Origin: Escherichia coli
GTDB taxonomy: Bacteria; Pseudomonadota; Gammaproteobacteria; Enterobacterales; Enterobacteriaceae
Direction: 5' to 3' (one strand)
Assembly: GCF_003334385.1 (NCBI RefSeq)
Contig: NZ_QOWN01000016.1
DNA length: 64,000 nucleotides
Shown: positions 3,674-61,611 of the stretch, in pieces
Position numbering within the stretch: position 1 is the first letter of the stretch
Layout of the letters: each line of letters opens with the position of its first letter
Notes under the pieces: generated by a model
Seen by the model: only the letters and a program-made list of their open reading frames with translations
What the model was told of the DNA's origin: nothing
The model's database searches: none
Translations under genes and position numbers: made by a program

Positions 3674-4699
3674 TTAACGCACGGGCGGTGCGTACTGAAT
3701 ACCGCCGTTATTCCAGAGATTATTTTGCCCACGTTTAATTTTCAGCGGGCTTTCTGAACCTACGTTACGCTCAAAAATTTCCGAGTAGTTACCCACCTGT
3801 TTGATGATGTTATAGGCCCATTTATTATCCAGCTTCAGATCCTTGCCGTAATCGCCTTCTTTACCCAGCAGATGTGCCATATCAGGCGTTGCTGGATTAG
3901 CCGCTTTTTCATCGACGTTCTGGGAATTGATGCCCATCTCTTCAGCATTCAGCATGGCGAAAAGCGTCCAGCGTACAATCGAGAACCATTCATCATCGCC
4001 ACGACGAACTACCGGACCAAGCGGTTCTTTTGAGATAACTTCCGGTAAGACAATCCATTCAGCTGGGTTGCTTAATTTGATGCGCAGGGCATACAGTTGT
4101 GATTGATCCGAGGCCAGCGTATCGCAGCGACCAGATTCCAGTGCCTTCGCTGATTCGTCAGAGCGATCGAAAGTCACCGGTGTGTACTTCATATTGTTTG
4201 CCTTGAAGTAGTCGGCGACGTTGAGTTCGGTATCAGTACCCGCCTGAATACAGACGGTAGCGCCATCCAGTTCTTTCGCGCTTTTTAGCCCCGCTTTATC
4301 GTGCGTCAGGAAGCCAATGCCGTCGTAATAAGTGACGCCGGTAAATGCCATTCCCATCCCGGCATCGCGAGATGAAGTCCAGGTCGTATTACGGGAGAGC
4401 AAATCCACCTCCCCTGACTGTAAAGCGGTGAAGCGTTCTTTTGCAGTGAGCGGGGTATATTTCACTTTCGTGTCGTCACCAAATACAGCAGCGGCAACAC
4501 CACGACAAATATCAACATCAATACCTGAAAACTTACCGTCAGCATCGGCATAAGAGAACCCAGGTAATCCATCACTGATCCCGCATTGCACAAAACCTTT
4601 TTTCTGAACGGCATCAAGCGTCGCGCCAGCATGCGCCTGATTTGCAACGGCAAGCAGCACGCTGGCGGCAGCCAGTGTGGCTATCATCATCTTTTTCAT
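3674..4699 (-). CDS. yhdW: periplasmic amino-acid-binding protein of the ABC system
   Basis: 341 aa, N-terminal signal peptide MKKMMIATLAAASVLLAVANQAHA, solute-binding protein family 3 features. Confidence 0.88.
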   Translation of the reverse strand: MKKMMIATLAAASVLLAVANQAHAGATLDAVQKKGFVQCGISDGLPGFSYADADGKFSGIDVDICRGVAAAVFGDDTKVKYTPLTAKERFTALQSGEVDLLSRNTTWTSSRDAGMGMAFTGVTYYDGIGFLTHDKAGLKSAKELDGATVCIQAGTDTELNVADYFKANNMKYTPVTFDRSDESAKALESGRCDTLASDQSQLYALRIKLSNPAEWIVLPEVISKEPLGPVVRRGDDEWFSIVRWTLFAMLNAEEMGINSQNVDEKAANPATPDMAHLLGKEGDYGKDLKLDNKWAYNIIKQVGNYSEIFERNVGSESPLKIKRGQNNLWNNGGIQYAPPVR

Positions 4700-5603: not shown

Positions 5604-8600
5604 TTATCCTTTAAAGCAACGGCGGATCACCACAAAGAACACCGGTACGAAGAAGATTGCCAGCAACGTTGCAGAGACCATTCCTCCCATTACCCCGATA
5701 CCCACAGCGTTCTGCGCGCCACTGCCGGCACCGTTACTGATAGCTAGCGGTAATACGCCGAGAATAAAGGCGAGAGAGGTCATCAGGATAGGACGCAGAC
5801 GCATACGTACTGCCATCAGTGTCGCTTCAACAACACCTTTACCCTCTTTCTCCATGAGATCTTTAGCGAACTCAACGATCAAAATAGCGTTTTTGGCCGA
5901 CAAGCCAATTGTCGTTAGCAAGCCCACCATAAAGTAGACGTCATTTTTTTGATTAAAGAGTGTCGCCGCCAGCAGCACGCCGACAATCCCTAACGGCACT
6001 ACCAACATAACCGAGACAGGAATTGACCAGCTTTCATAGAGTGCAGCAAGGCACAGGAAAACAACCACAAAGGAAATTGCTACCAGAGCGGGAGCCTGGT
6101 TTCCCGATAAGCGTTCCTGATACGACATACCCGTCCAGTCATAACCAATGCCCGCAGGTAATTTTGACGCAAGGTTTTCCATCAACGCCATGGCATCGCC
6201 GGAACTGGTTCCTGGCGCGGCTTCCCCCTGAATCTCCATTGACGGCAGACCGTTGTAGCGTTCCAGTCGCGGAGAGCCATACACCCAATGTGAAGTGGTA
6301 AAGGCCGAGAATGGCACCATTTCGCCGTTGGCGCTGCGGACATAAAGTTTATCGACATCTTCTGGCAGCATACGGAATTTGGCATCCGCCTGAACATACA
6401 ACTTTTTCACGCGACCACGGTCGATGAAGTCGTTAACGTAAGTCCCACCCAGCGCCGTTGAAATGGTCTGATTGATGTCAGAAAGTGAAACACCTAATGC
6501 CTGCGCCTTTTCCTGGTCAACTTCCAGTTTAAACTGCGCGGTGTCTTCCAGGCCATTAGGGCGCACGCTGACTAAGCTGGCAGGATGTTGCGCCGCCATA
6601 CCAAGCAACTGGTTACGGGCCTGGGTTAGGGCATCGTGACCCAGCCCAGCCTGATCAATTAACTCAAAGTCGAAACCCGTTGCCGTGCCCAGTTCAACAA
6701 TGGCTGGCATATTGAATGGAATGACAAAACCGTCGCGGATCTTGCCCAATTCCATTTTGGCACGATGGATTACCGCTTCCGCACTGTTTTCGTCACCATT
6801 ACGCTCTTCCCACGGTTTCAGACTGACGAAGGCCATACCGGCGTTTTGTGCCTGGCCGCTGAAGCTAAAGCCGTTAACCGTAAAGACACTTTCAACGTTC
6901 GCTTTCTCGTTCTTCAGATAGTAATCCGTAACTTGATCCAACACTTTTTGCGTCCGCTCTTGCGTCGCGCCAGCGGGTAACTGAATCATGGTCAGAAAGA
7001 CACCCTGATCCTCTTCAGGTAAGAAGGAAGACGGAAGACGTAAAAACAACACCACCATTCCTGCAACAATCAGCGCATAGATCAGTAAATATCGTCCTGT
7101 GGATCCGAGGATTTTGCCGACGCTGTTGGTGTAGTGGTTAACGCTATGATCGAAGGTGGTATTAAACCAACCGAAGAAACCGCCCTTATTTTCGTGATGC
7201 TCAGCAGAGACGGGTTTAAGCAGCGTTGCACATAACGCAGGGGTAAGAATCAATGCCACCAGAACAGAAAGCGCCATTGCCGAAACGATGGTGATAGAGA
7301 ACTGGCGATAAATTGCCCCAGTAGAACCGCCGAAGAATGCCATCGGAATAAATACCGCTGACAGCACCATCGCGATACCCACCAGTGCGCCCTGAATTTG
7401 CGACATCGATTTTTCCGTCGCTTCTTTTGGCGGGAGCTTATCCTCCATCATCACGCGCTTGACGTTCTCCACCACCACTATCGCATCATCGACGAGCAGC
7501 CCGATGGCAAGCACCATCCCGAACATCGTTAGTGTGTTGATGGAGTAACCAAAAGCGGCGAGGATGGCAAACGTCCCTAACAACACCACGGGTACCGCAA
7601 TGGTGGGGATCAGCGTTGCTCGCATATTCTGCAAGAACAGATACATCACCAGGAACACCAGCATAATGGCTTCGAACAGCGTTTTTACCACTTCGTGAAT
7701 AGAAAGCTGGACGAATGGCGTGGTGTCATAAGGGTAGAGAACCTTCATTCCCTGCGGGAAGAATGGCTGTAATTCCGCCAGTTTTGCCTTAATGGCTTTC
7801 GCGGTATCGAGAGCATTCGCGCCGGTTGCCAGCTTAATCCCCAGGCCCGCCGCCGGTTTTCCGTTGATACGAGCGATAACGTTATAGTTTTCACCGCCAA
7901 GTTCAACCCGTGCGACATCTTTCAGGCGTACCACCGAGCCGTCACTGTTTACGCGCAGGGTCACTTTGCCGAATTCTTCCGGATTTTTAAACCGCGTCTG
8001 AGCAATAATCGAGGCGTTCAATTGTTGCCCTGGTAACGCTGGCGTTCCGCCCAACTGTCCGGCAGCGATCTGATCGTTCTGTACCTTCAACTGGTTAATC
8101 ACATCAACCGGTGTCAGTTTATATTTGTTTAGCAGATCGGCATCCAGCCAGATACGCATCGCATACTGTGCGCCGAAAAGCTGTACGTCACCGACGCCAT
8201 TCAGACGGCTAAGCGTATCTTTAACGTTAGAGGCCACATAGTCCGAGATATCGTCCTGTGTGGTGCCTGGGTTATCAGAGACAAAGCCCGCCACCATCAA
8301 ATAGCTGCTACTGGACTTTTCAACACTGATCCCCTGCTGCTGAACCTCCTGCGGCAGCAACGGCGTGGCGAGCTGGAGTTTGTTCTGCACCTGCACTTGC
8401 GCGATATCAGGATCGGTCCCGGACTGGAAGGTAAGGGTAATTGTCACGCTACCGGCGGAATCGCTGGTGGAGGACATATACATCAGGTTATCGATACCGT
8501 TCATATTCTGTTCGATAACCTGCGTCACCGTATCCTGCACGGTCTGCGCATCAGCGCCCGGATAGTTTGCTGAAACAGAAACCGCAGGCGGTGCAATTGT

Positions 8601-8708
8601 TGGATACTGAGCGACGGGCAATTGTAGGATCGCCAGTGCGCCCGCCATCATCAGAATAATGGCCAGCACCCATGCAAATATCGGTCGTCGAATAAAAAAG
8701 TTTGCCAT
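5604..8708 (-). CDS. acrF: RND multidrug efflux pump, inner-membrane transporter
   Basis: 1034 aa, 12-TM RND architecture, AcrB paralogue; follows acrE with a 12-bp gap. Confidence 0.93.
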
Positions 8709-8719
8709 GTCAGATTACC

Positions 8720-9877
8720 TTACTTCGATGCAGTATCTGCGGGGGTATCGGTAGTGGCTTTAACCTGCTCTCCCGGACGCGCTTTTTGCAGGCCGCTGAC
8801 AATGACTTGATCGCCAGATTTCAGTCCTTCACTAATCAACCATTTATCGCCAATCGCCTGACTGGCAACGACAGGGCGCGCTTCAACCTGACTTTTATCG
8901 TTAACAATCAGCACGGTTGCATCACCACGCGGTGTGCGGCTAACGCCTTGTTGCGGGATAAGAATGGCGTCAGGTTGGACGCCTTCATCAATCCGTGCAC
9001 GCACAAACATACCCGGCAAAAGCGTATGTTGCGGGTTAGGGAAGACAGCACGTAGGGTTATGGAGCCGGTGCTTTCATCAACGGTCACATCGGAGAATTG
9101 CAGCGTACCTTTCAGGGGATAGGTTTGACCGTTTTCCATGACCAACTCTACGTTGCTGGTGGCGTTTTCCTTATGCAAATTTCCTTGCTCTACGGATTGC
9201 TTCAGCCTCATAAAATCGTTGCTGGATTGGGTCACATCAACGTAGATAGGATCGAGCTGCTGGACAGTCGCCAGTTCAGTCGTTTGCCCATTAGTGACAA
9301 GAGCGCCTTCGGTCACAGTCGATTTGCCGATACGTCCGCTAATTGGCGCAGTGACTTTGGTATAAGCAAGATTGATGCGAGCGCTTTCGACTGTGGCTTT
9401 TGCGGCAATCACGGCGGCATCGGCCTGACGAGCATCAGCAATGGCCTGGTCGTACTCCTGCTGGCTGATGTATTTCGTACCCACGAGCGGAACGTAACGT
9501 TTTACCGTCAAATGCGCGATGGCGGCGGCGGCTTCACTTTTCGCCAGTTCGCCTTTCGCGCTGTCATAATTTGCCTGATAGGTCGCGGGATCGATCTGGT
9601 ACAGGGACTGGCCTGCTTGCACATCGCTGCCTTCAGTGAAATTGCGATTCAGTACGATCCCGCTAACCTGTGGGCGAACTTCGGCTATACGATAAGCATT
9701 GGTGCGGCCTGGTAATTCAGTCTTAACTTCTAACGGGGCCGTTTTTACAATATGAACGGTAACCTGCGGTTCACCGACGTGAGCTTTCTCTTCTCCCTTA
9801 TCGTTACAACCGGCGATTAAAGCCGCGGAGATCAGAATAAAGGAGGGCAGGAGGAAAAACCTGGCATGTTTCGTCAT
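8720..9877 (-). CDS. acrE: RND efflux membrane-fusion lipoprotein
   Basis: 385 aa, lipobox LIAGC, HlyD/AcrA-like. Confidence 0.92.
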   Translation of the reverse strand: MTKHARFFLLPSFILISAALIAGCNDKGEEKAHVGEPQVTVHIVKTAPLEVKTELPGRTNAYRIAEVRPQVSGIVLNRNFTEGSDVQAGQSLYQIDPATYQANYDSAKGELAKSEAAAAIAHLTVKRYVPLVGTKYISQQEYDQAIADARQADAAVIAAKATVESARINLAYTKVTAPISGRIGKSTVTEGALVTNGQTTELATVQQLDPIYVDVTQSSNDFMRLKQSVEQGNLHKENATSNVELVMENGQTYPLKGTLQFSDVTVDESTGSITLRAVFPNPQHTLLPGMFVRARIDEGVQPDAILIPQQGVSRTPRGDATVLIVNDKSQVEARPVVASQAIGDKWLISEGLKSGDQVIVSGLQKARPGEQVKATTDTPADTASK

Positions 9878-10275
9878 TACTATTCCTCAAAAAACCAAAA
9901 GCGCGTTATTTACCCAAAAAGGCAACGCGTTAACTCGCAGAAAGAAAAATACAGTTCGCTATCCTACAAATTATCATTCGTCGATGTAAGGAATAGTTAT
10001 GAATACAGGCATCTCAAGGCACATAAACACAAAAAAAGATTAATATTCTACTGTTTTATTTTGACGCGGGTTGAAAGAGGCAGAATTAAAACCTCGTAAA
10101 TTGAAATATATATTGATGTAGTGAATGTATCTTAGGTAAATAATATATATTATTTATTTAACGATTTATAGCAACTCAATATTAGCCTCTCGTATAAATA
10201 CACATTAGGTGATAGATTAACCTTCGCTATTTTCTCACTCTGTGTCGAATATATTTATTTCCTGAATAATTAATC

Positions 10276-10938
10276 ATGGCAAAAAGAACCAAAGCCGAAG
10301 CTCTGAAGACCCGGCAAGAACTGATTGAAACTGCCATCGCCCAGTTTGCGCAGCATGGCGTAAGCAAGACGACGCTCAACGACATTGCCGACGCCGCTAA
10401 CGTTACGCGTGGCGCTATCTACTGGCACTTCGAAAACAAGACTCAACTGTTTAATGAGATGTGGTTGCAACAGCCTTCATTGCGGGAGTTAATCCAGGAA
10501 CACTTGACGGCTGGATTAGAGCATGACCCGTTTCAACAATTGCGTGAAAAATTGATTGTCGGCTTGCAATATATTGCCAAAATTCCCCGCCAGCAGGCGT
10601 TGCTGAAAATCTTATATCACAAATGTGAATTTAATGATGAGATGCTGGCCGAGGGAGTGATACGCGAAAAGATGGGCTTTAATCCGCAGACTCTCCGCGA
10701 AGTATTGCAGGCGTGTCAGCAACAAGGTTGTGTAGCAAATAACCTCGATTTAGATGTTGTGATGATTATTATTGATGGTGCCTTCAGCGGAATTGTTCAA
10801 AACTGGTTAATGAATATGGCGGGTTATGATCTTTATAAACAAGCCCCCGCTCTGGTCGATAACGTATTAAGAATGTTCATGCCAGATGAAAACATAACGA
10901 AATTAATTCATCAAACGAATGAATTAAGTGTCATGTAA
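10276..10938 (+). CDS. acrS: TetR-family repressor of acrEF (AcrS/EnvR)
   Basis: 220 aa, N-terminal TetR HTH (FAQHGVSKTTLNDIADAANVTRGAIYWHF); divergent from acrE across an AT-rich ~400-bp region. Confidence 0.9.
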   Translation: MAKRTKAEALKTRQELIETAIAQFAQHGVSKTTLNDIADAANVTRGAIYWHFENKTQLFNEMWLQQPSLRELIQEHLTAGLEHDPFQQLREKLIVGLQYIAKIPRQQALLKILYHKCEFNDEMLAEGVIREKMGFNPQTLREVLQACQQQGCVANNLDLDVVMIIIDGAFSGIVQNWLMNMAGYDLYKQAPALVDNVLRMFMPDENITKLIHQTNELSVM

Positions 10939-10940
10939 AT

Positions 10941-11120
10941 TCACATTCTGTCCTGAAAATTCAGTTCGTCACAGTTAACCAGTTTTAGTGGATTAACTGA
11001 GTTCATATTGCGGCATTTGTCTGTTTCTGTTGCCAGCAGTTCAATCCACTGCATCAGTAAAGTATCAAACAGAAAAACGAAGACAGCGAAAACGACGAGC
11101 CACCAATACTTGCGAATCAT
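10941..11120 (-). CDS. yhdU: small membrane protein (DUF2556)
   Basis: ATG at 11120 gives 59 aa MIRKYWWLVVFAVFVFLF...; ORF track extends 9 codons upstream. Confidence 0.7.
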   Translation of the reverse strand: MIRKYWWLVVFAVFVFLFDTLLMQWIELLATETDKCRNMNSVNPLKLVNCDELNFQDRM

Positions 11121-11203
11121 TACCTGAGCCTGTGCATGTTTAACCAAGTCTGGCAGGAAATATACACGAAATGAATAATCTGAAAACCAGGCTTACACAT
11201 CCT

Positions 11204-31283: not shown

Positions 31284-31357
31284 TTTGACGAGGGCGCGTA
31301 ATTGCCCCAATCTCATAGGATAATCGTTGCCAAAGGCCAACGAGCCAGAACATAACC

Positions 31358-31391
31358 GTAGGTCGGATAGGGCGTTCACGCCGCATCCGGC
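31358..31391. repeat. REP (repetitive extragenic palindrome, PU type)
   Basis: GTAGGTCGGATAGGGCGTTCACGCCGCATCCGGC, reverse complement of the REP consensus GCCGGATGCGGCGTGAACGCC...; between yhdP and tldD. Confidence 0.8.
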
Positions 31392-31423
31392 AGCCGTAAA
31401 AAATCCTCTACTGCAGTAACTAA

Positions 31424-37665: not shown

Positions 37666-37929
37666 TTATTTGTACAGTTCAGCCGTAGCGTGCCAGGTGT
37701 CACCGCTACGAGCTTCAGTAATCTGGTAGGCCGTTGCGCCTTTCTCTTCCGCTTTTTTGTTCAGCATTTCACGCATATCCATTGGCGAAGACGCCACACC
37801 ACTTACGGATACGGTCCCGATTGCTTCACGATTTTGTGCTTGTGCAGCATCAATGGAGTCGGCAGCGAATGCACCGAAAGAGAGAACAGAAAGTACGCTT
37901 AATGCAGCAACAGTGGTTTTGATTTTCAT
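37666..37929 (-). CDS. yhcN: small periplasmic stress protein (DUF1471, BhsA/YdgH-like)
   Basis: 87 aa from MKIKTTVAALSVLSVLSFGAFA (signal peptide); ORF track adds 17 codons. Confidence 0.82.
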   Translation of the reverse strand: MKIKTTVAALSVLSVLSFGAFAADSIDAAQAQNREAIGTVSVSGVASSPMDMREMLNKKAEEKGATAYQITEARSGDTWHATAELYK

Positions 37930-38293
37930 GATTTTTACCTCGACATAATCTTTTAGCTGGGCCTTTGTTTCGTGACCCATATCACAAAATCAAGTATACA
38001 CTAATTATTGAGCTAATTAATACCGCGCTAACTGTTTCAGTTGATACTAAGTGTTAAAAATGTGAATTTTAATAACAAAAAAGAATTAAAAATACGGTTA
38101 TTTATCGTTAATTCTAGTTTTTTCAATTAGATAATGAATTTTGCATAATGTGCTTTTTTTACCTTATGTATTCATTGTGTGAATGACATGTCGCAGTAAA
38201 ACGCACTATTCGTTAAATTAATCGCAGGGGAAAGCAGGGGGTTGAGAGGGATAAGCAACATTTTCCCCGCCGTCAGAAACGACGGGGCAGAGA

Positions 38294-47230: not shown

Positions 47231-48598
47231 TTAATAAAATAGCGTGATTGTGGCAATCATATTCACCACGAAACCGACTGCCATGGGGATCGCTGTCCGC
47301 TTCACCACCGCAAAAGGCGAAACGCCTGCAATTCCTGACGTAACGACCACCACCGCAGTAATCGGCGAAACCGCGCGCGCTAGCGTCGTGGCAAAATGCA
47401 TCGGCATAATCATTACAACCGCTGGTACATGTAGTCCGGCTGCGATATTCGGAATAAGACTGGCAAATGACATAAACGGCGCATTGCCAGAGCCCATCAC
47501 AATGGCACAAATGGCAATGACCAGCGCCATAATAATCATCACGCCAATACCGCCCAGACCAGAATGCTCCGCCCCCCTGATAACCGCATCGACAGTGCCA
47601 ATCGTCGTTAAGCCTTTCGCAAATATTTCACCCGCGACCACCAGCGTTACCACGTTGGCAAACTGCGTACCCATGCCGTCAAAAAACGCCTGCACATCGT
47701 CCATTGTTTCGCGCAAGTTATGCTTGCGGAAGAACTCAACAAACATCGTCACAGTCAAACTCAGTAACATCACCACCACCAGATGCAGTTCTGACTGCAT
47801 CAGCCCGACGTGGGCGAGGAACAGCGAGCCGAGCATCAGGATTAACGGCATCACAGGTAAAATGGCGTAATAGAGCGGCGGGACATTATCGAGAGCTTTT
47901 TGCTCTGCCTGTTCGTGATTGATATTTTTATCTTTTTTGTCAAAAGCGCGTTGCACGAAAAAGTGGGAGATCGCCACCGAGATAATGACGCAAGAGGCGA
48001 CCGGAAGCTGGTAGTGGAAGAAGTATGTGGCAATTTTCATTCCCGCTACCTGGGCAGCAAAAATGGAGTTCGTTTCCAGAATCCCCCACTCAATGGACAT
48101 CGTGGTTGCGATAACTGCCACCGCAGAGAGACGACTTACTCCCAGACTCACCAGCGTCGGAAATAAGGTGACCATCAGCAACATACCCAGACCGGAGGCG
48201 CTGGTAATAAACTGCGCCATGATTTGGCCGATGACGTAAGTTGCCGACAGAATAATATACGGCGAGCGAATGAGTTTTAACGGGCGGCTTAACAAGCTCA
48301 CCATCGCGCGACTGGCCCCTATGCGCTCCATGTAGCGGGCATAACCGCCCACCGCCATAATCGACAGCCCCAATCCGGCAATGCGGTTGGACAGCATGCG
48401 CAGGATTTCATTATAAATATCGACGATCAAGTAGCCGCTGCTTTTGGTGGGATCGAGTACACCACCGAACCCTAACCAGACACCGCACATCATCAGGAAG
48501 ATACCTGCGGCAGCCAGCACCACCTGAGGTTTGTAGTTTTTCAGGATCAAATAGCCCATCGTAATTAATACGATGACAGATATAATTATGCCGAACAT
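47231..48598 (-). CDS. dcuD: DcuC-family anaerobic C4-dicarboxylate transporter
   Basis: 455 aa from [23 protein letters not shown]; polytopic. Confidence 0.88.
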
Positions 48599-48977
48599 TG
48601 TTGAACTCCGTGTCAAAAGAAAACGGTCAATCCCATAAACGGCAGATTGAAAACAACGATGTTATATTTTTTGCAAGGCTATTTATGGTGCGGATGTCGT
48701 GTTTTTAATTGTAGGTGAGGTGATTTTTCATTAAAAAATATGCGCTTATGATTATTTTGTAAGAACACATTCATAATATTCATAATGCTCGTGAATAGTC
48801 TTATAAATAATTCAAACGGGATGTTTTTATCTGCGTTACATTAATTTTTCGCAATAGTTAATTATTCCGTTAATTATGGTAATGATGAGGCACAAAGAGA
48901 AAACCCTGCCATTTTCCCCTACTTTCAATCCTGTGATAGGATGTCACTGATGATGTTAATCACACTGACCTTACAGA

Positions 48978-56541: not shown

Positions 56542-57083
56542 TTTGCCTCCACCAGGACCGTCAGATTGCCTGTAATATCTGTCATGTCGGTTAGTTCCCC
56601 TTCATCCTTAAAAGCTGGAGCCATTGTCAGTGTGAGGCTAACGCTTTTACCGCTATCAATTACCACTTCTTGACCATTTTGCATAAACACCAGCCAATTA
56701 TTGGGGGAAGTACTAATTGATGCTGTTCCTGTGCTGCCCGGATTGTCATTTTTGCCACTGGCTAACGCCAGGTCGAGATTGTTACTACCTGAAAATGCAT
56801 CGCTGGCGATCAGATTTAATGAACCATTCGGGCCAAATCCAAATCCGTTGTTGGAAATATTAGCGGTATTCAACTGAACACGAATATGAGCGTCCTGATC
56901 GCATTGCATTACCAGCGTGATTGTTCTGTCTGCTAATTGTGTTGTTTTACCCCGGTCAACTTGGCGCATGGCAGCACTTCGTTTGCCATAGTCGATATTT
57001 TGTATGCTACTGGAGATATTACACTCTGCCTGAGCGGCCATGGCGAAGTTCAGCAGCAGGCATCCTGTTATTATCCGTTTCAT
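56538..57083 (-). CDS. yhcE: fimbrial-like protein, intact
   Basis: about 181 aa from ATG at 57083 (MKRIITGCLLLNFAMAAQA signal peptide); ATGA overlaps with yhcD stop and yhcF start; uninterrupted here. Confidence 0.75.
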   Translation of the reverse strand: MKRIITGCLLLNFAMAAQAECNISSSIQNIDYGKRSAAMRQVDRGKTTQLADRTITLVMQCDQDAHIRVQLNTANISNNGFGFGPNGSLNLIASDAFSGSNNLDLALASGKNDNPGSTGTASISTSPNNWLVFMQNGQEVVIDSGKSVSLTLTMAPAFKDEGELTDMTDITGNLTVLVEAK

Positions 57084-59481: not shown

Positions 59482-60156
59482 TTATTTTAAGTCAGTGACA
59501 TATTTATTACCGCGATAACCATATCGGCTGGCTGGGTAAAACTCGACTTTTGTATCCGTAGCGTTTGTTAATGCAGTAGTTGTACTGGTGTGTGGTAGAA
59601 AATAGGTCTTATTTATAGCCCCCGTTTTTCCTGAAGGGAGCGTTTTAAATTGTAAGGTCATACGAACGACATAATTACTGGGGTTGCTAATCTCAATTTG
59701 GTCGCCATTTTTACGCCATTCCAGGAATTTCCAGGTCTCTCGCTCTTCCGGCAGGGAAGCCGGGTGGATCAGTACAGGTAGATCCTGACGAATTGAAACA
59801 GTAACTCTGCTGCTCTTGTCATCTTTTGGTGGAATACCTTCGAACGTTACGCGTTTCAGCTCTTCTGATTGCAGAGGAACAGTCGCCTGAAGTAAAAATC
59901 GAACCTGTTGTACTTGACCGGCTTCAACACGAATAACGGGCTGAGTCGGGATTAAACGAATTGATTTATTGCTTTCAGGCAAATCAACAATGGTGGTGTA
60001 AAGCAATGAAGGATGATCATCTGTATTCTTAATATTAATACTAGCTTCACCACGCTTTTCATCAACCAGCAATACTGATGTTTCAGGAACCATCCCTGTG
60101 GCTAAGGTATTCATTGATGTTGTTATAAATACAGTGAATGTAATGTGTCTGAGCAT
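59482..60156 (-). CDS. yhcA: fimbrial periplasmic chaperone (PapD-like)
   Basis: 224 aa, signal peptide, chaperone-sized; immediately upstream of the usher. Confidence 0.88.
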   Translation of the reverse strand: MLRHITFTVFITTSMNTLATGMVPETSVLLVDEKRGEASINIKNTDDHPSLLYTTIVDLPESNKSIRLIPTQPVIRVEAGQVQQVRFLLQATVPLQSEELKRVTFEGIPPKDDKSSRVTVSIRQDLPVLIHPASLPEERETWKFLEWRKNGDQIEISNPSNYVVRMTLQFKTLPSGKTGAINKTYFLPHTSTTTALTNATDTKVEFYPASRYGYRGNKYVTDLK

Positions 60157-60327
60157 TTAAATTAAAACTCCTGTAATAATGATAAATAACGCAGAAACAT
60201 ATTGTTAATATATGTTATGCACTGTTTGCGATGAGATTGATTAAGACAGACCATGTCATAGGGCATAATCTGTCCGAGTTATAGCTAACTGGTTAATGCG
60301 TAAAAATAAAAACTGTATTACAAGTTC

Positions 60328-61092
60328 TTATAAATACTGAACGCTGATAGTGACGTTACCATCCAGTTTGATCGTTTCATCAGAACCAAGAATAGTATTG
60401 TCATTTACCGCAGCATCAATCAGTAACGGGAAGGTGACCGCTGTAATGGCAACAGGTGTCAGTTCCCCTGTTTTTGCAACAGAATAACCGCGCTCGATTG
60501 CTGAGCAACTTGTCAGCGAGCAGAATGCGCCATTAGATGAGGCTTTCCATGTGGGGGTCGCTGCTGACCAGTGGTCAGTTTGAATCAGGTCGACAGGAAT
60601 TTCACCTGTATCGTCCGCCGCGTGAATCCCACCATTAGACCTGTCAATACCAATGGATGCAGCGCCAATTTTTTGTCCATTAGGCGCAGAACCTAAACCA
60701 AAGGCGTTTTTCGTTCCCTTCATATCTACGAGAGTATCATAAGCTTTTTCAATATAGGATGTGTCGTTTAACGCTACAATGGTCGACTGACGGTTATCCT
60801 TGGAGGTTACAGCAATTAGCGTTGGTGCTGTGCAGGTTATATTTAATGTGCTGTTTTTGCGGCCCAGTTGAACCAGTTTATTACTTTTACCGGTCGGATT
60901 CAGCGCACTGTTATGATGTTTCCCATAGTCAACAATGCCGCCGCCCGTAACAACTGGGGTACATGCACCAGGGGTATACTCGCCGATGATAGTTAATTCT
61001 GTATCAGTTGAATCTGTTGCCATGGCACTGAATGCTGCAACAGAAAGTGCTGCACAAATAGCAGCTGTTGTGAGGTTCTTTTTGAAAAACAT
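60328..61092 (-). CDS. gltF: DUF1120 periplasmic protein GltF
   Basis: 254 aa, signal peptide MFFKKNLTTAAICAALSVAAFSAMA; paralogue of YhcF. Confidence 0.88.
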   Translation of the reverse strand: MFFKKNLTTAAICAALSVAAFSAMATDSTDTELTIIGEYTPGACTPVVTGGGIVDYGKHHNSALNPTGKSNKLVQLGRKNSTLNITCTAPTLIAVTSKDNRQSTIVALNDTSYIEKAYDTLVDMKGTKNAFGLGSAPNGQKIGAASIGIDRSNGGIHAADDTGEIPVDLIQTDHWSAATPTWKASSNGAFCSLTSCSAIERGYSVAKTGELTPVAITAVTFPLLIDAAVNDNTILGSDETIKLDGNVTISVQYL

Positions 61093-61611
61093 ATGAACAT
61101 ATCCTTAATAACAAATTTATTTTTTAAAATAAAAAGCTGAAGCAGTATATATATCTGTTTGTGAATGTAAATAAATAACTCGTTCAGAAATAGCCAACTT
61201 GCTGGGATGTATTTATTTAATGAATTTTATAGTTACGATCATGTGAATAATAAGGTGCTGGTGAGGTGGTTTGTGGTGATAATTATTCATTACATGAATG
61301 TTTGCGCTGAAAAATAGGAAAATATATAGATAATTAAGGATAATATATTGGTTTTTTATATTCATATTTTGTATATTAATATCGAGACAATTTACATGGA
61401 ATGAAAAGACTGAATAGCTTGCAGAATCGGTATTGTCAGAGGTGTTAACAAGTAATTGAGACGGATTGTAAATGAGAAATTGCTTGATGTGCTTCACTCA
61501 TCAGACTTGGTGAACAAAGCACAATTTATTGAAAATTATCCCTATTATAGGAAAGGTCAAACGCTCATGCCGCATTTGCCAGAAAACAACGCGCACTTCG
61601 TCAGTAATTTG

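Follow-up and report, generated by a model that had tools for sequence, protein, structure and literature searches.

What keeps the acrEF multidrug-efflux operon of Escherichia coli almost silent, and in which state is its control region in the strain studied here? The question concerns the DNA between acrE and the divergently oriented acrS (envR), which occupies positions 9878–10275 of the 64-kb stretch (64,000 nucleotides) that we analysed as a whole and call the window. On the left, acrE (8720–9877, minus strand) is a 385-aa open reading frame (WP_000160334.1; b3265) for the periplasmic adaptor of the AcrEF-TolC RND efflux pump, and its product passes the TIGR01730 RND_mfp profile. The second gene of the operon, acrF (5604–8708, minus strand), is also controlled from the spacer and encodes the RND permease as an intact 1034-aa frame, which differs from the MG1655 gene by two SNPs. 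On the right, acrS (10276–10938, plus strand; 220 aa, RefSeq annotation) is the gene for a TetR-family repressor, whose product scored 434 bits against the NCBIfam model NF007430 ('acrEF/envCD operon transcriptional regulator'; cut-off 274). The start codons of acrE and acrS form the two edges. Thus, the divergent region of roughly 400 bp described in the initial annotation is exactly a 398-bp spacer, as defined by the ends of the open reading frames, the composition, the identity with MG1655 and the RefSeq annotation.

The spacer agrees in 398 of 398 bases with positions 3413466–3413863 of MG1655, and the window corresponds to the reverse complement of roughly 3.358–3.424 Mb of that chromosome with ~99.94% identity. 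A 598-bp query spanning the spacer also matched RefSeq E. coli chromosomes with 100% identity, and in these the flanks are annotated as acrE and acrS; in MG1655 they are named acrE (b3265) and envR (b3264), and acrF comes next. With regard to the spacer, the flanking genes and the synteny, the acrS(envR)-acrEF locus (b3264–b3266) of K-12 MG1655 is the same as here, whereas the two strains differ elsewhere: in the present one yhdW is intact, yhcE lacks an IS5 and the tldD-yhdP spacer is shorter. Because the control region is K-12 sequence base for base, experiments performed in K-12 apply to it directly. It is colinear with the uninterrupted MG1655 reference and so is not an insertion-activated allele, in agreement with the initial annotation, and sequences of IS1, IS2, IS3, IS5, IS30 and IS186 were absent from the entire 64-kb window. 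We conclude that the region is very probably the intact wild-type control region of the cryptic acrEF multidrug-efflux operon and of acrS (envR).

The spacer contains 30.7% GC against 50.5% in the window. Only 0.34% of all 398-bp windows in the 64 kb are as AT-rich, which bears out its earlier description as markedly AT-rich, and it ranks second from the bottom in GC among the non-overlapping 398-bp stretches; other AT-rich stretches lie at 61076–61473 (26.9% GC) and at 48562–48959 and 37825–38222 (32.4% each). The GC trough is asymmetric, with 34–36% in the acrE-proximal 200 bp and 23–29% over 10028–10277. Its AT-richest core, at 10078–10227 (23–26% GC per 100 bp), is on the acrS side, 200–350 bp from acrE and away from the promoter-proximal end of that gene. 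The many A/T tracts that had also been pointed out are there, as nine runs of at least four A or T, twice the window average (4.05 per 398 bp), but they are not in excess of what the base composition gives: composition-preserving shuffles of the spacer contained 7.5 ± 2.4 such runs, so that the runs can be taken as a consequence of composition. Neither are the tracts in helical phase, since no autocorrelation was detected at 10–11 or 21 bp, and classical intrinsic curvature is thus unsupported. The longest run of only A and T (25 bp, 10137–10161) exceeded the shuffles (p about 0.007), and TpA steps were enriched 2.7-fold (12.6 per 100 bp in the spacer, 4.7 in the window). The high-affinity H-NS motif TCGWTWAATT gave one match with one mismatch in the spacer (10155–10164) and was not enriched in the 64-kb window (23 observed vs 17 expected), which makes the motif uninformative.

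Published work on the identical K-12 sequence supports the reading of this region as silenced by H-NS. Genomic SELEX flagged an H-NS site inside the envR/acrE spacer, and the RpoD holoenzyme was also found to bind this spacer in vitro (Shimada et al., 2014; PMC3946193). In wild-type K-12, acrEF is barely expressed (PMC4462101, PMC6599122, PMC10202319, PMC6790063), which fits its designation as typically cryptic, and deletion of hns derepresses it, according to citations of Nishino and Yamaguchi (2004) in PMC4462101, PMC6599122 and PMC10202319. The AT-richest core at 10078–10227 is the likely platform for H-NS; for the core itself, specific binding is extrapolated from the SELEX site, which was reported at the level of the spacer. 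In these respects, acrEF resembles the bgl operon and fucAO, which are silenced by H-NS and activated by insertion sequences and share with it AT-rich upstream DNA, low basal expression and derepression in hns mutants. Activation by upstream IS1, IS2 or IS5 is likewise a feature that the acrEF locus shares with this class, and its spacer is a natural IS target as well (see below). Unlike the IS-activated alleles of such H-NS-silenced genes, the window carries no insertion sequence.

For the comparison across genera, one genome of each species was scanned for orthologues with a degenerate DNA pattern that stands for an AcrS peptide. Most of the hits were unrelated TetR regulators of other proteobacteria; a real AcrS orthologue was present at 13 enterobacterial loci, 11 of which contained both genes and were used as spacers (E. 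albertii, E. whittamii, three further Escherichia lineages, Salmonella enterica subsp. arizonae and subsp. diarizonae, three Citrobacter and Pseudocitrobacter). Together with the window, they made up a comparison set of 12 spacers from four genera. The AcrS protein diverges much faster than AcrE: the identities of AcrE and AcrS are 96% vs 83% in E. albertii and 87% vs 69% in S. arizonae.

The spacers of Escherichia, Salmonella, Citrobacter and Pseudocitrobacter are 376–413 bp long with 30–34% GC, and their two halves are kept in different ways. Identity to the window amounts to 78% in the acrE-proximal half (68% in the non-Escherichia genera) and to 58% in the acrS-proximal half (45% in the same genera). 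Nevertheless, the acrS-proximal half contains only 26.5–32.4% GC in all 12 spacers. That AT-richness is retained in spite of the sequence divergence speaks for a constraint on composition, and composition, as read by H-NS, would be what matters in this half. The Salmonella enterica envR-acrEF locus has the same layout, with a 410-bp spacer of 31.5–33.9% GC that is 59% identical to the window overall and diverged in the acrS-proximal half. Repression of the Salmonella operon by H-NS and its activation by IS1 or IS10 have been described, as far as the citations of Nishino (2009) and Olliver (2005), including those in PMC10202319, report them. Only five runs of five or more bases are invariant in the 12 spacers, namely TTCCT, AAACC, TATCCTACAAAT (9960–9971), ATGTAAG (9984–9990) and GGCAC (10018–10022). 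The first of them (9883–9887, plus strand) is the complement of the acrE Shine-Dalgarno region, which reads GAGGAA at 9883–9889 on the minus strand.

Two of the other runs hold a candidate for a weak sigma-70 promoter of acrE, CTTACA-18-TAGGAT (9961–9990, minus strand), with the putative −35 at 9990–9985 and −10 at 9966–9961. The hexamers sit in TATCCTACAAAT and ATGTAAG and are therefore invariant in 12/12 spacers. They score only 8 of 12 against consensus, under the reporting threshold of the scanner. Adaptive evolution of acrB-null K-12 has given precise positions of activating changes upstream of acrE (PMC9783932), and a published position −N corresponds to 9877+N in the window. The selected SNP G>A at −86 falls on 9963 and would turn TAGGAT into TAGAAT. 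The 5-bp target GTAGG (9963–9967, minus strand, as mapped onto our sequence), which was duplicated by laboratory-selected IS2 insertions at −86/−90 (PMC9783932), is immediately upstream of TAGGAT and overlaps it. Moreover, IS2/acrEF has been grouped with the fusion promoters, in which the insertion sequence contributes the −35 and the target DNA the −10 (PMC9330008). At its right end, IS2 has TGGAAA 16 nt from the tip, and an IS2 copy with this end facing acrE, an orientation that we assume, would give TGGAAA-17-TAGGAT. The candidate thus accommodates the SNP, the insertion hotspot and the fusion-promoter class, and we would put the chance that it is the acrE promoter at about even.

A different acrE promoter has been predicted in the literature, TTGAGT-19-AATAAT at 10149–10179 on the minus strand (Shimada et al., 2014; PMC3946193, Table 1). 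It lies about 190 bp further upstream than CTTACA-18-TAGGAT, in a stretch that is poorly conserved (30–48% identity in the non-Escherichia genera). For acrS, a consensus scan found the promoter-like site TTAAAA-17-TATATT (10086–10114, plus strand), and the same hexamers had been picked for envR by Shimada et al. (2014; PMC3946193). Its −10 block GAAATATATATT is partly kept across genera and its −35 is not.

Activation of acrEF by insertion elements in some strains, mentioned in the initial annotation, is documented in detail. IS1 or IS2 upstream of the operon activates it, as Kobayashi (2001) and Jellen-Ritter and Kern (2001) are cited in PMC4462101 and PMC6599122. The acrB-null lines carried IS1 at −138, IS2 at −86/−90 and IS5 at −94 and −163, in addition to the SNPs T>G at −92 and G>A at −86, and the same paper quotes −90 and −187 as the IS sites of Kobayashi (PMC9783932). 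Taken together, the published activating insertions of IS1, IS2 and IS5 are 86–187 bp upstream of acrE (PMC9783932), and the insertion and SNP sites map to 9963–10064 of the window. Both the provision of fusion or outward promoters by the insertion sequence and the relief from H-NS are plausible as the cause of acrEF activation.

We then carried out the strain comparison that had been proposed for this locus, using the complete E. coli genomes. The region was matched in 5242 of 5426 genomes, with 95.7–100% identity in all but one, and was uninterrupted in 5218 of the 5242. Interruption within the 598-bp query therefore concerns at most 24 genomes (<0.5%). The interrupted genomes were listed by means of a chimeric query, in which the acrE 5′ end was combined with the ends of IS1, IS2 and IS5 so that genomes with an insertion sequence beside acrE rank top. 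At least 17 genomes contain IS1 or IS5 in the spacer. Their junctions, either mapped by BLAST or estimated from match spans, are at 9940, 9974, ~9987, ~10015, 10043, 10103, ~10123, ~10211 and 10247. BLAST placed IS5 in the laboratory-evolved strain AML001_ev01, with 9971–9974 duplicated, and in the human isolate N1024 (10040–10043), and the spans of N780, N779 and strain 124 are equal or nearly equal to that of N1024. It also placed IS1 in XJ55 (9932–9940), in NT1N31 (10095–10103; identical span in NT1N34) and, just upstream of the acrS start, in 2017.11.01CC (10238–10247; identical span in PSS-10). Match spans point to further IS1 copies near 9987, 10015, 10123 and 10211. No IS2 was found beside acrE in the complete genomes, in a search that covered IS1, IS2 and IS5.

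The IS5 sites at 9971–9974 and 10040–10043 and the IS1 site at ~10015 coincide with the laboratory sites −94, −163 and −138, respectively. The natural insertions as a whole are scattered over the entire spacer, and acrF is a pseudogene in two of the lineages that carry IS1. This spread and these pseudogenes leave room for the view that the insertions reflect a preference of insertion sequences for AT-rich DNA and not selection for activation. Natural insertions need not be activating, and IS1 and IS5 may simply be drawn to the AT-rich spacer. Two IS-associated deletions were also found: in GN25 it removes 9819–11003, that is, the acrE 5′ end, the spacer, acrS and part of yhdU, and in strain C1 it removes 10349–10923 within acrS.

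These results can be brought together in a scheme of two modules. The acrE-proximal ~150–190 bp would be a module conserved in sequence, which holds a weak, non-consensus acrE promoter, and the acrS-proximal ~200 bp (~27% GC) would be a module conserved in composition, which holds the acrS promoter or promoters and the H-NS platform. H-NS polymerised on the AT-rich DNA would, together with the weakness of the promoter, keep acrEF almost silent, and its removal would allow expression. IS1, IS2 or IS5 landing 55–190 bp upstream of acrE would likewise lead to expression, because the inserted element would bring or create a promoter and would separate acrE from the AT-rich platform. Since neither an insertion sequence nor any other such change is present in the window, acrEF is expected to be silent in this strain. 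Within this scheme, we infer the promoter hexamers, the point of H-NS nucleation and the relative weight of silencing and promoter weakness. As a tentative generalization, this arrangement may be a device kept in Escherichia, Salmonella, Citrobacter and Pseudocitrobacter, in which a weak invariant promoter, perhaps with GGCAC-N7-CAAA as an activator box, is coupled to a composition-selected H-NS platform and maybe to an AcrS operator, so that a backup pump stays one mutation away from expression, be it the insertion of an IS or a single base change in the −10.

It is also possible, though we consider it rather unlikely, that acrEF is silent mainly through a weak promoter awaiting an activator of the MarA/SoxS/Rob/RamA type or SdiA, with AT-rich DNA and H-NS in a secondary role. 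The poor match to consensus of CTTACA and TAGGAT, the only invariant promoter-like hexamers, is in line with this, and so is the selection in acrB-null lines of the single G>A change, which improves the −10 (PMC9783932). SdiA is listed among the regulators of acrEF (PMC4462101), and a conserved box is available about 35 bp upstream of the −35. This box, GGCAC-N7-CAAA (10016–10034, plus strand), resembles a marbox core that is backward relative to acrE; its GGCAC is invariant and is followed 7 nt on by CAAA or TAAA in 12/12 spacers. We regard it as a weak lead. It departs from the marbox consensus AYnGCACnnWnnRYYAAAY by more than three mismatches and so does not qualify as a mar/sox/rob promoter element, and the consensus itself occurs in the 64-kb window at chance frequency (117 observed vs 139 expected). 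Moreover, deletion of hns alone is reported to raise AcrEF, as far as PMC4462101 and PMC6599122 cite it. The dependence on promoter weakness is compatible with the two-module scheme and does not exclude it.

A third possibility, which appears improbable, is a TetR-type switch in which AcrS, bound to a palindromic operator, acts as the chief local repressor of both acrEF and its own gene, and the AT-richness is incidental. The layout, with the gene of a TetR-type regulator divergent from an RND operon, speaks for it, and EnvR has been stated to be a local regulator of acrEF (PMC6790063). An imperfect inverted repeat, AATATATATTGA-tgtag-TGAATGTATCTT (10103–10131), covers the −10/start region of acrS and is a possible TetR-type (AcrS) operator. 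In E. albertii it is perfect (12/12, equalled by 0 of 300 shuffles), in Escherichia sp. MOD1-EC7003 it is 10/12, and it includes GTGAATGTAT (10121–10130), a 10-mer of the AcrR operator that is common to the control regions of acrR-acrAB and acrS-acrEF. However, the repeat is complementary in only 9 of 12 positions in the window, which is not above shuffles, and is degenerate in Salmonella and Citrobacter. The full AcrR operator has no counterpart in the spacer, where the best match is 14/24, a score reached by 82% of shuffles. The paralogous acrR-acrAB control region is similar in that the gene of a TetR-family repressor diverges from an operon for an RND adaptor and pump, and AcrS scores 181.5 bits against the AcrR model. 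In other respects the two control regions differ: the acrA-acrR spacer is 141 bp long with 35.5% GC and a perfect 24-bp operator, whereas the acrE-acrS spacer is 398 bp long with 30.7% GC, is without a full operator match and is reported to be bound by H-NS, and acrAB is constitutively expressed whereas acrEF is not. The two spacers showed no local homology beyond 12 nt. Furthermore, the repeat lies over the acrS promoter and the conserved acrE hexamers are ~140 bp downstream of it, a position that at most suggests autoregulation; acrS is deleted in the natural isolate C1. The repeat could be an autoregulatory operator of AcrS.

It is very unlikely that the AT-richness has no regulatory meaning and merely reflects what is usual in a long intergenic region or what a past horizontal transfer left behind. 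Intergenic DNA is generally richer in AT, and similar spacers occur elsewhere in the window. However, the length and the 30–34% GC are kept in four genera despite an identity as low as 45%, and the locus is syntenic across these genera and so is not a recent acquisition. H-NS and RNA polymerase are reported to bind in the spacer (PMC3946193), and the reported H-NS site and the hns-dependent expression refute this explanation. A small gene or small RNA hidden in the spacer is hardly credible: a 77-aa open reading frame (9866–10099, plus strand) could be taken for one, but one-base indels of Escherichia spacers fall within it with no codon-like conservation, MG1655 has no annotated feature between envR and acrE, and an Rfam search at E ≤ 1 found no family in the spacer, its sole match being sub-threshold and inside the acrE coding sequence.

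Both the initial observation and its interpretation as an H-NS-silenced promoter region are supported and were already known for this locus, and our study offers nothing new in kind. The small additions are the population counts, the numbers across genera and the promoter candidate. In practical terms, they provide a coordinate map of activating insertions and point mutations, a candidate promoter that is directly testable, and an estimate that the spacer is interrupted in <0.5% of complete E. coli genomes, and they reveal IS1 and IS5 sites that are common to laboratory evolution and natural isolates. If AcrAB is lost or inhibited, AcrEF is the main reserve pump through which multidrug and solvent resistance is restored, and the state of the spacer thus predicts whether the pump is already expressed in a strain. 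As the spacer is of the wild type here, the AcrEF pump of this strain should be silent.

In some complete E. coli genomes, the acrE gene itself carries an insertion. A search with the acrE 5' end and IS ends showed the acrE 5' region (window positions 9478-9900) to be split in at least 16 complete genomes, where the match overlies an annotated transposase of the IS903B family; therefore, acrE is disrupted rather than activated in these genomes. Many of the genomes with split acrE are from human clinical isolates, for example, WCHEC005784, AR_0137 and the MRSN3463xx series. IS1 within acrE was found in one lettuce isolate, Ec1120. Moreover, insertion sequences are associated with two natural deletions at the locus. 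In strain GN25, IS1 stands in place of the acrE 5' end, the entire acrE-acrS spacer, acrS and part of yhdU (9819-11003 relative to the window), and in strain C1, an ISKpn26-like element stands in place of most of acrS (10349-10923).

With regard to base composition, low GC (35-42% over 10600-11200) continues past the 398-bp intergenic region into the 3' half of acrS and on across the region of yhdU, and thus the AT-rich patch is about 1.3 kb, larger than the intergenic region. The window has four further strongly AT-rich stretches (26.9-32.7% GC), which are located in the gltD-gltF spacer (61076-61473), the gltF-yhcA spacer extending into yhcA (59951-60348), the nanR-dcuD spacer (48562-48959) and the argR-yhcN spacer (37825-38222). 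The last one, like the envR (acrS)/acrE spacer, was marked as H-NS-bound (Shimada et al., 2014; PMC3946193).

The products of the two divergent genes were compared between the window (acrS, 10276-10938; acrE, 8720-9877) and orthologous enterobacterial loci (L017, L065, L038, L043 and L116). Identity to the window proteins was 83% for AcrS versus 96% for AcrE in E. albertii, 69% versus 87% in Salmonella arizonae, and 63-70% versus 83-87% in Citrobacter and Pseudocitrobacter. Judging from these protein identities, AcrS evolves much faster than AcrE. In addition, a sub-threshold Rfam match to Bcj14 (Burkholderia RNA 14; 39.8 bits against the gathering score of 59, E = 4e-5) covers the full model length on the minus strand at 9591-9778, entirely inside the acrE ORF. 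This Rfam family may overlap an RND adaptor gene.

The window is K-12-like, not K-12. Its yhdW is intact owing to an extra base at 4632, whereas in K-12 that gene is a pseudogene with a frameshift. Unlike K-12, the window has no IS5 in yhcE (56713-56716), and its tldD-yhdP spacer (31334-31397) is missing about 270 bp of repeat-flanked sequence found in MG1655. Its acrF differs from that of MG1655 by two SNPs, a third-position change at 6414 and a G>A change at 7460 in the first position of codon 417, the latter of which is predicted to give E417K (VENVKRVMM in the window protein).

The acrF gene is intact in the window and frameshifted in the strain ER1709 record. In the IS1-carrying lineages NT1N31 and XJ55, the annotation marks it as a pseudogene that contains an internal stop, and in ST11/O157:H7 it was reported to be inactivated by a 45-bp insertion (PMC10202319). 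Decay of the acrEF operon seems to be common. Of the complete E. coli genomes, 184 of the 5426 gave no megablast match to the 598-bp query of the spacer with the adjoining acrE and acrS ends, which suggests that the locus is lost or strongly diverged in about 3% of them.
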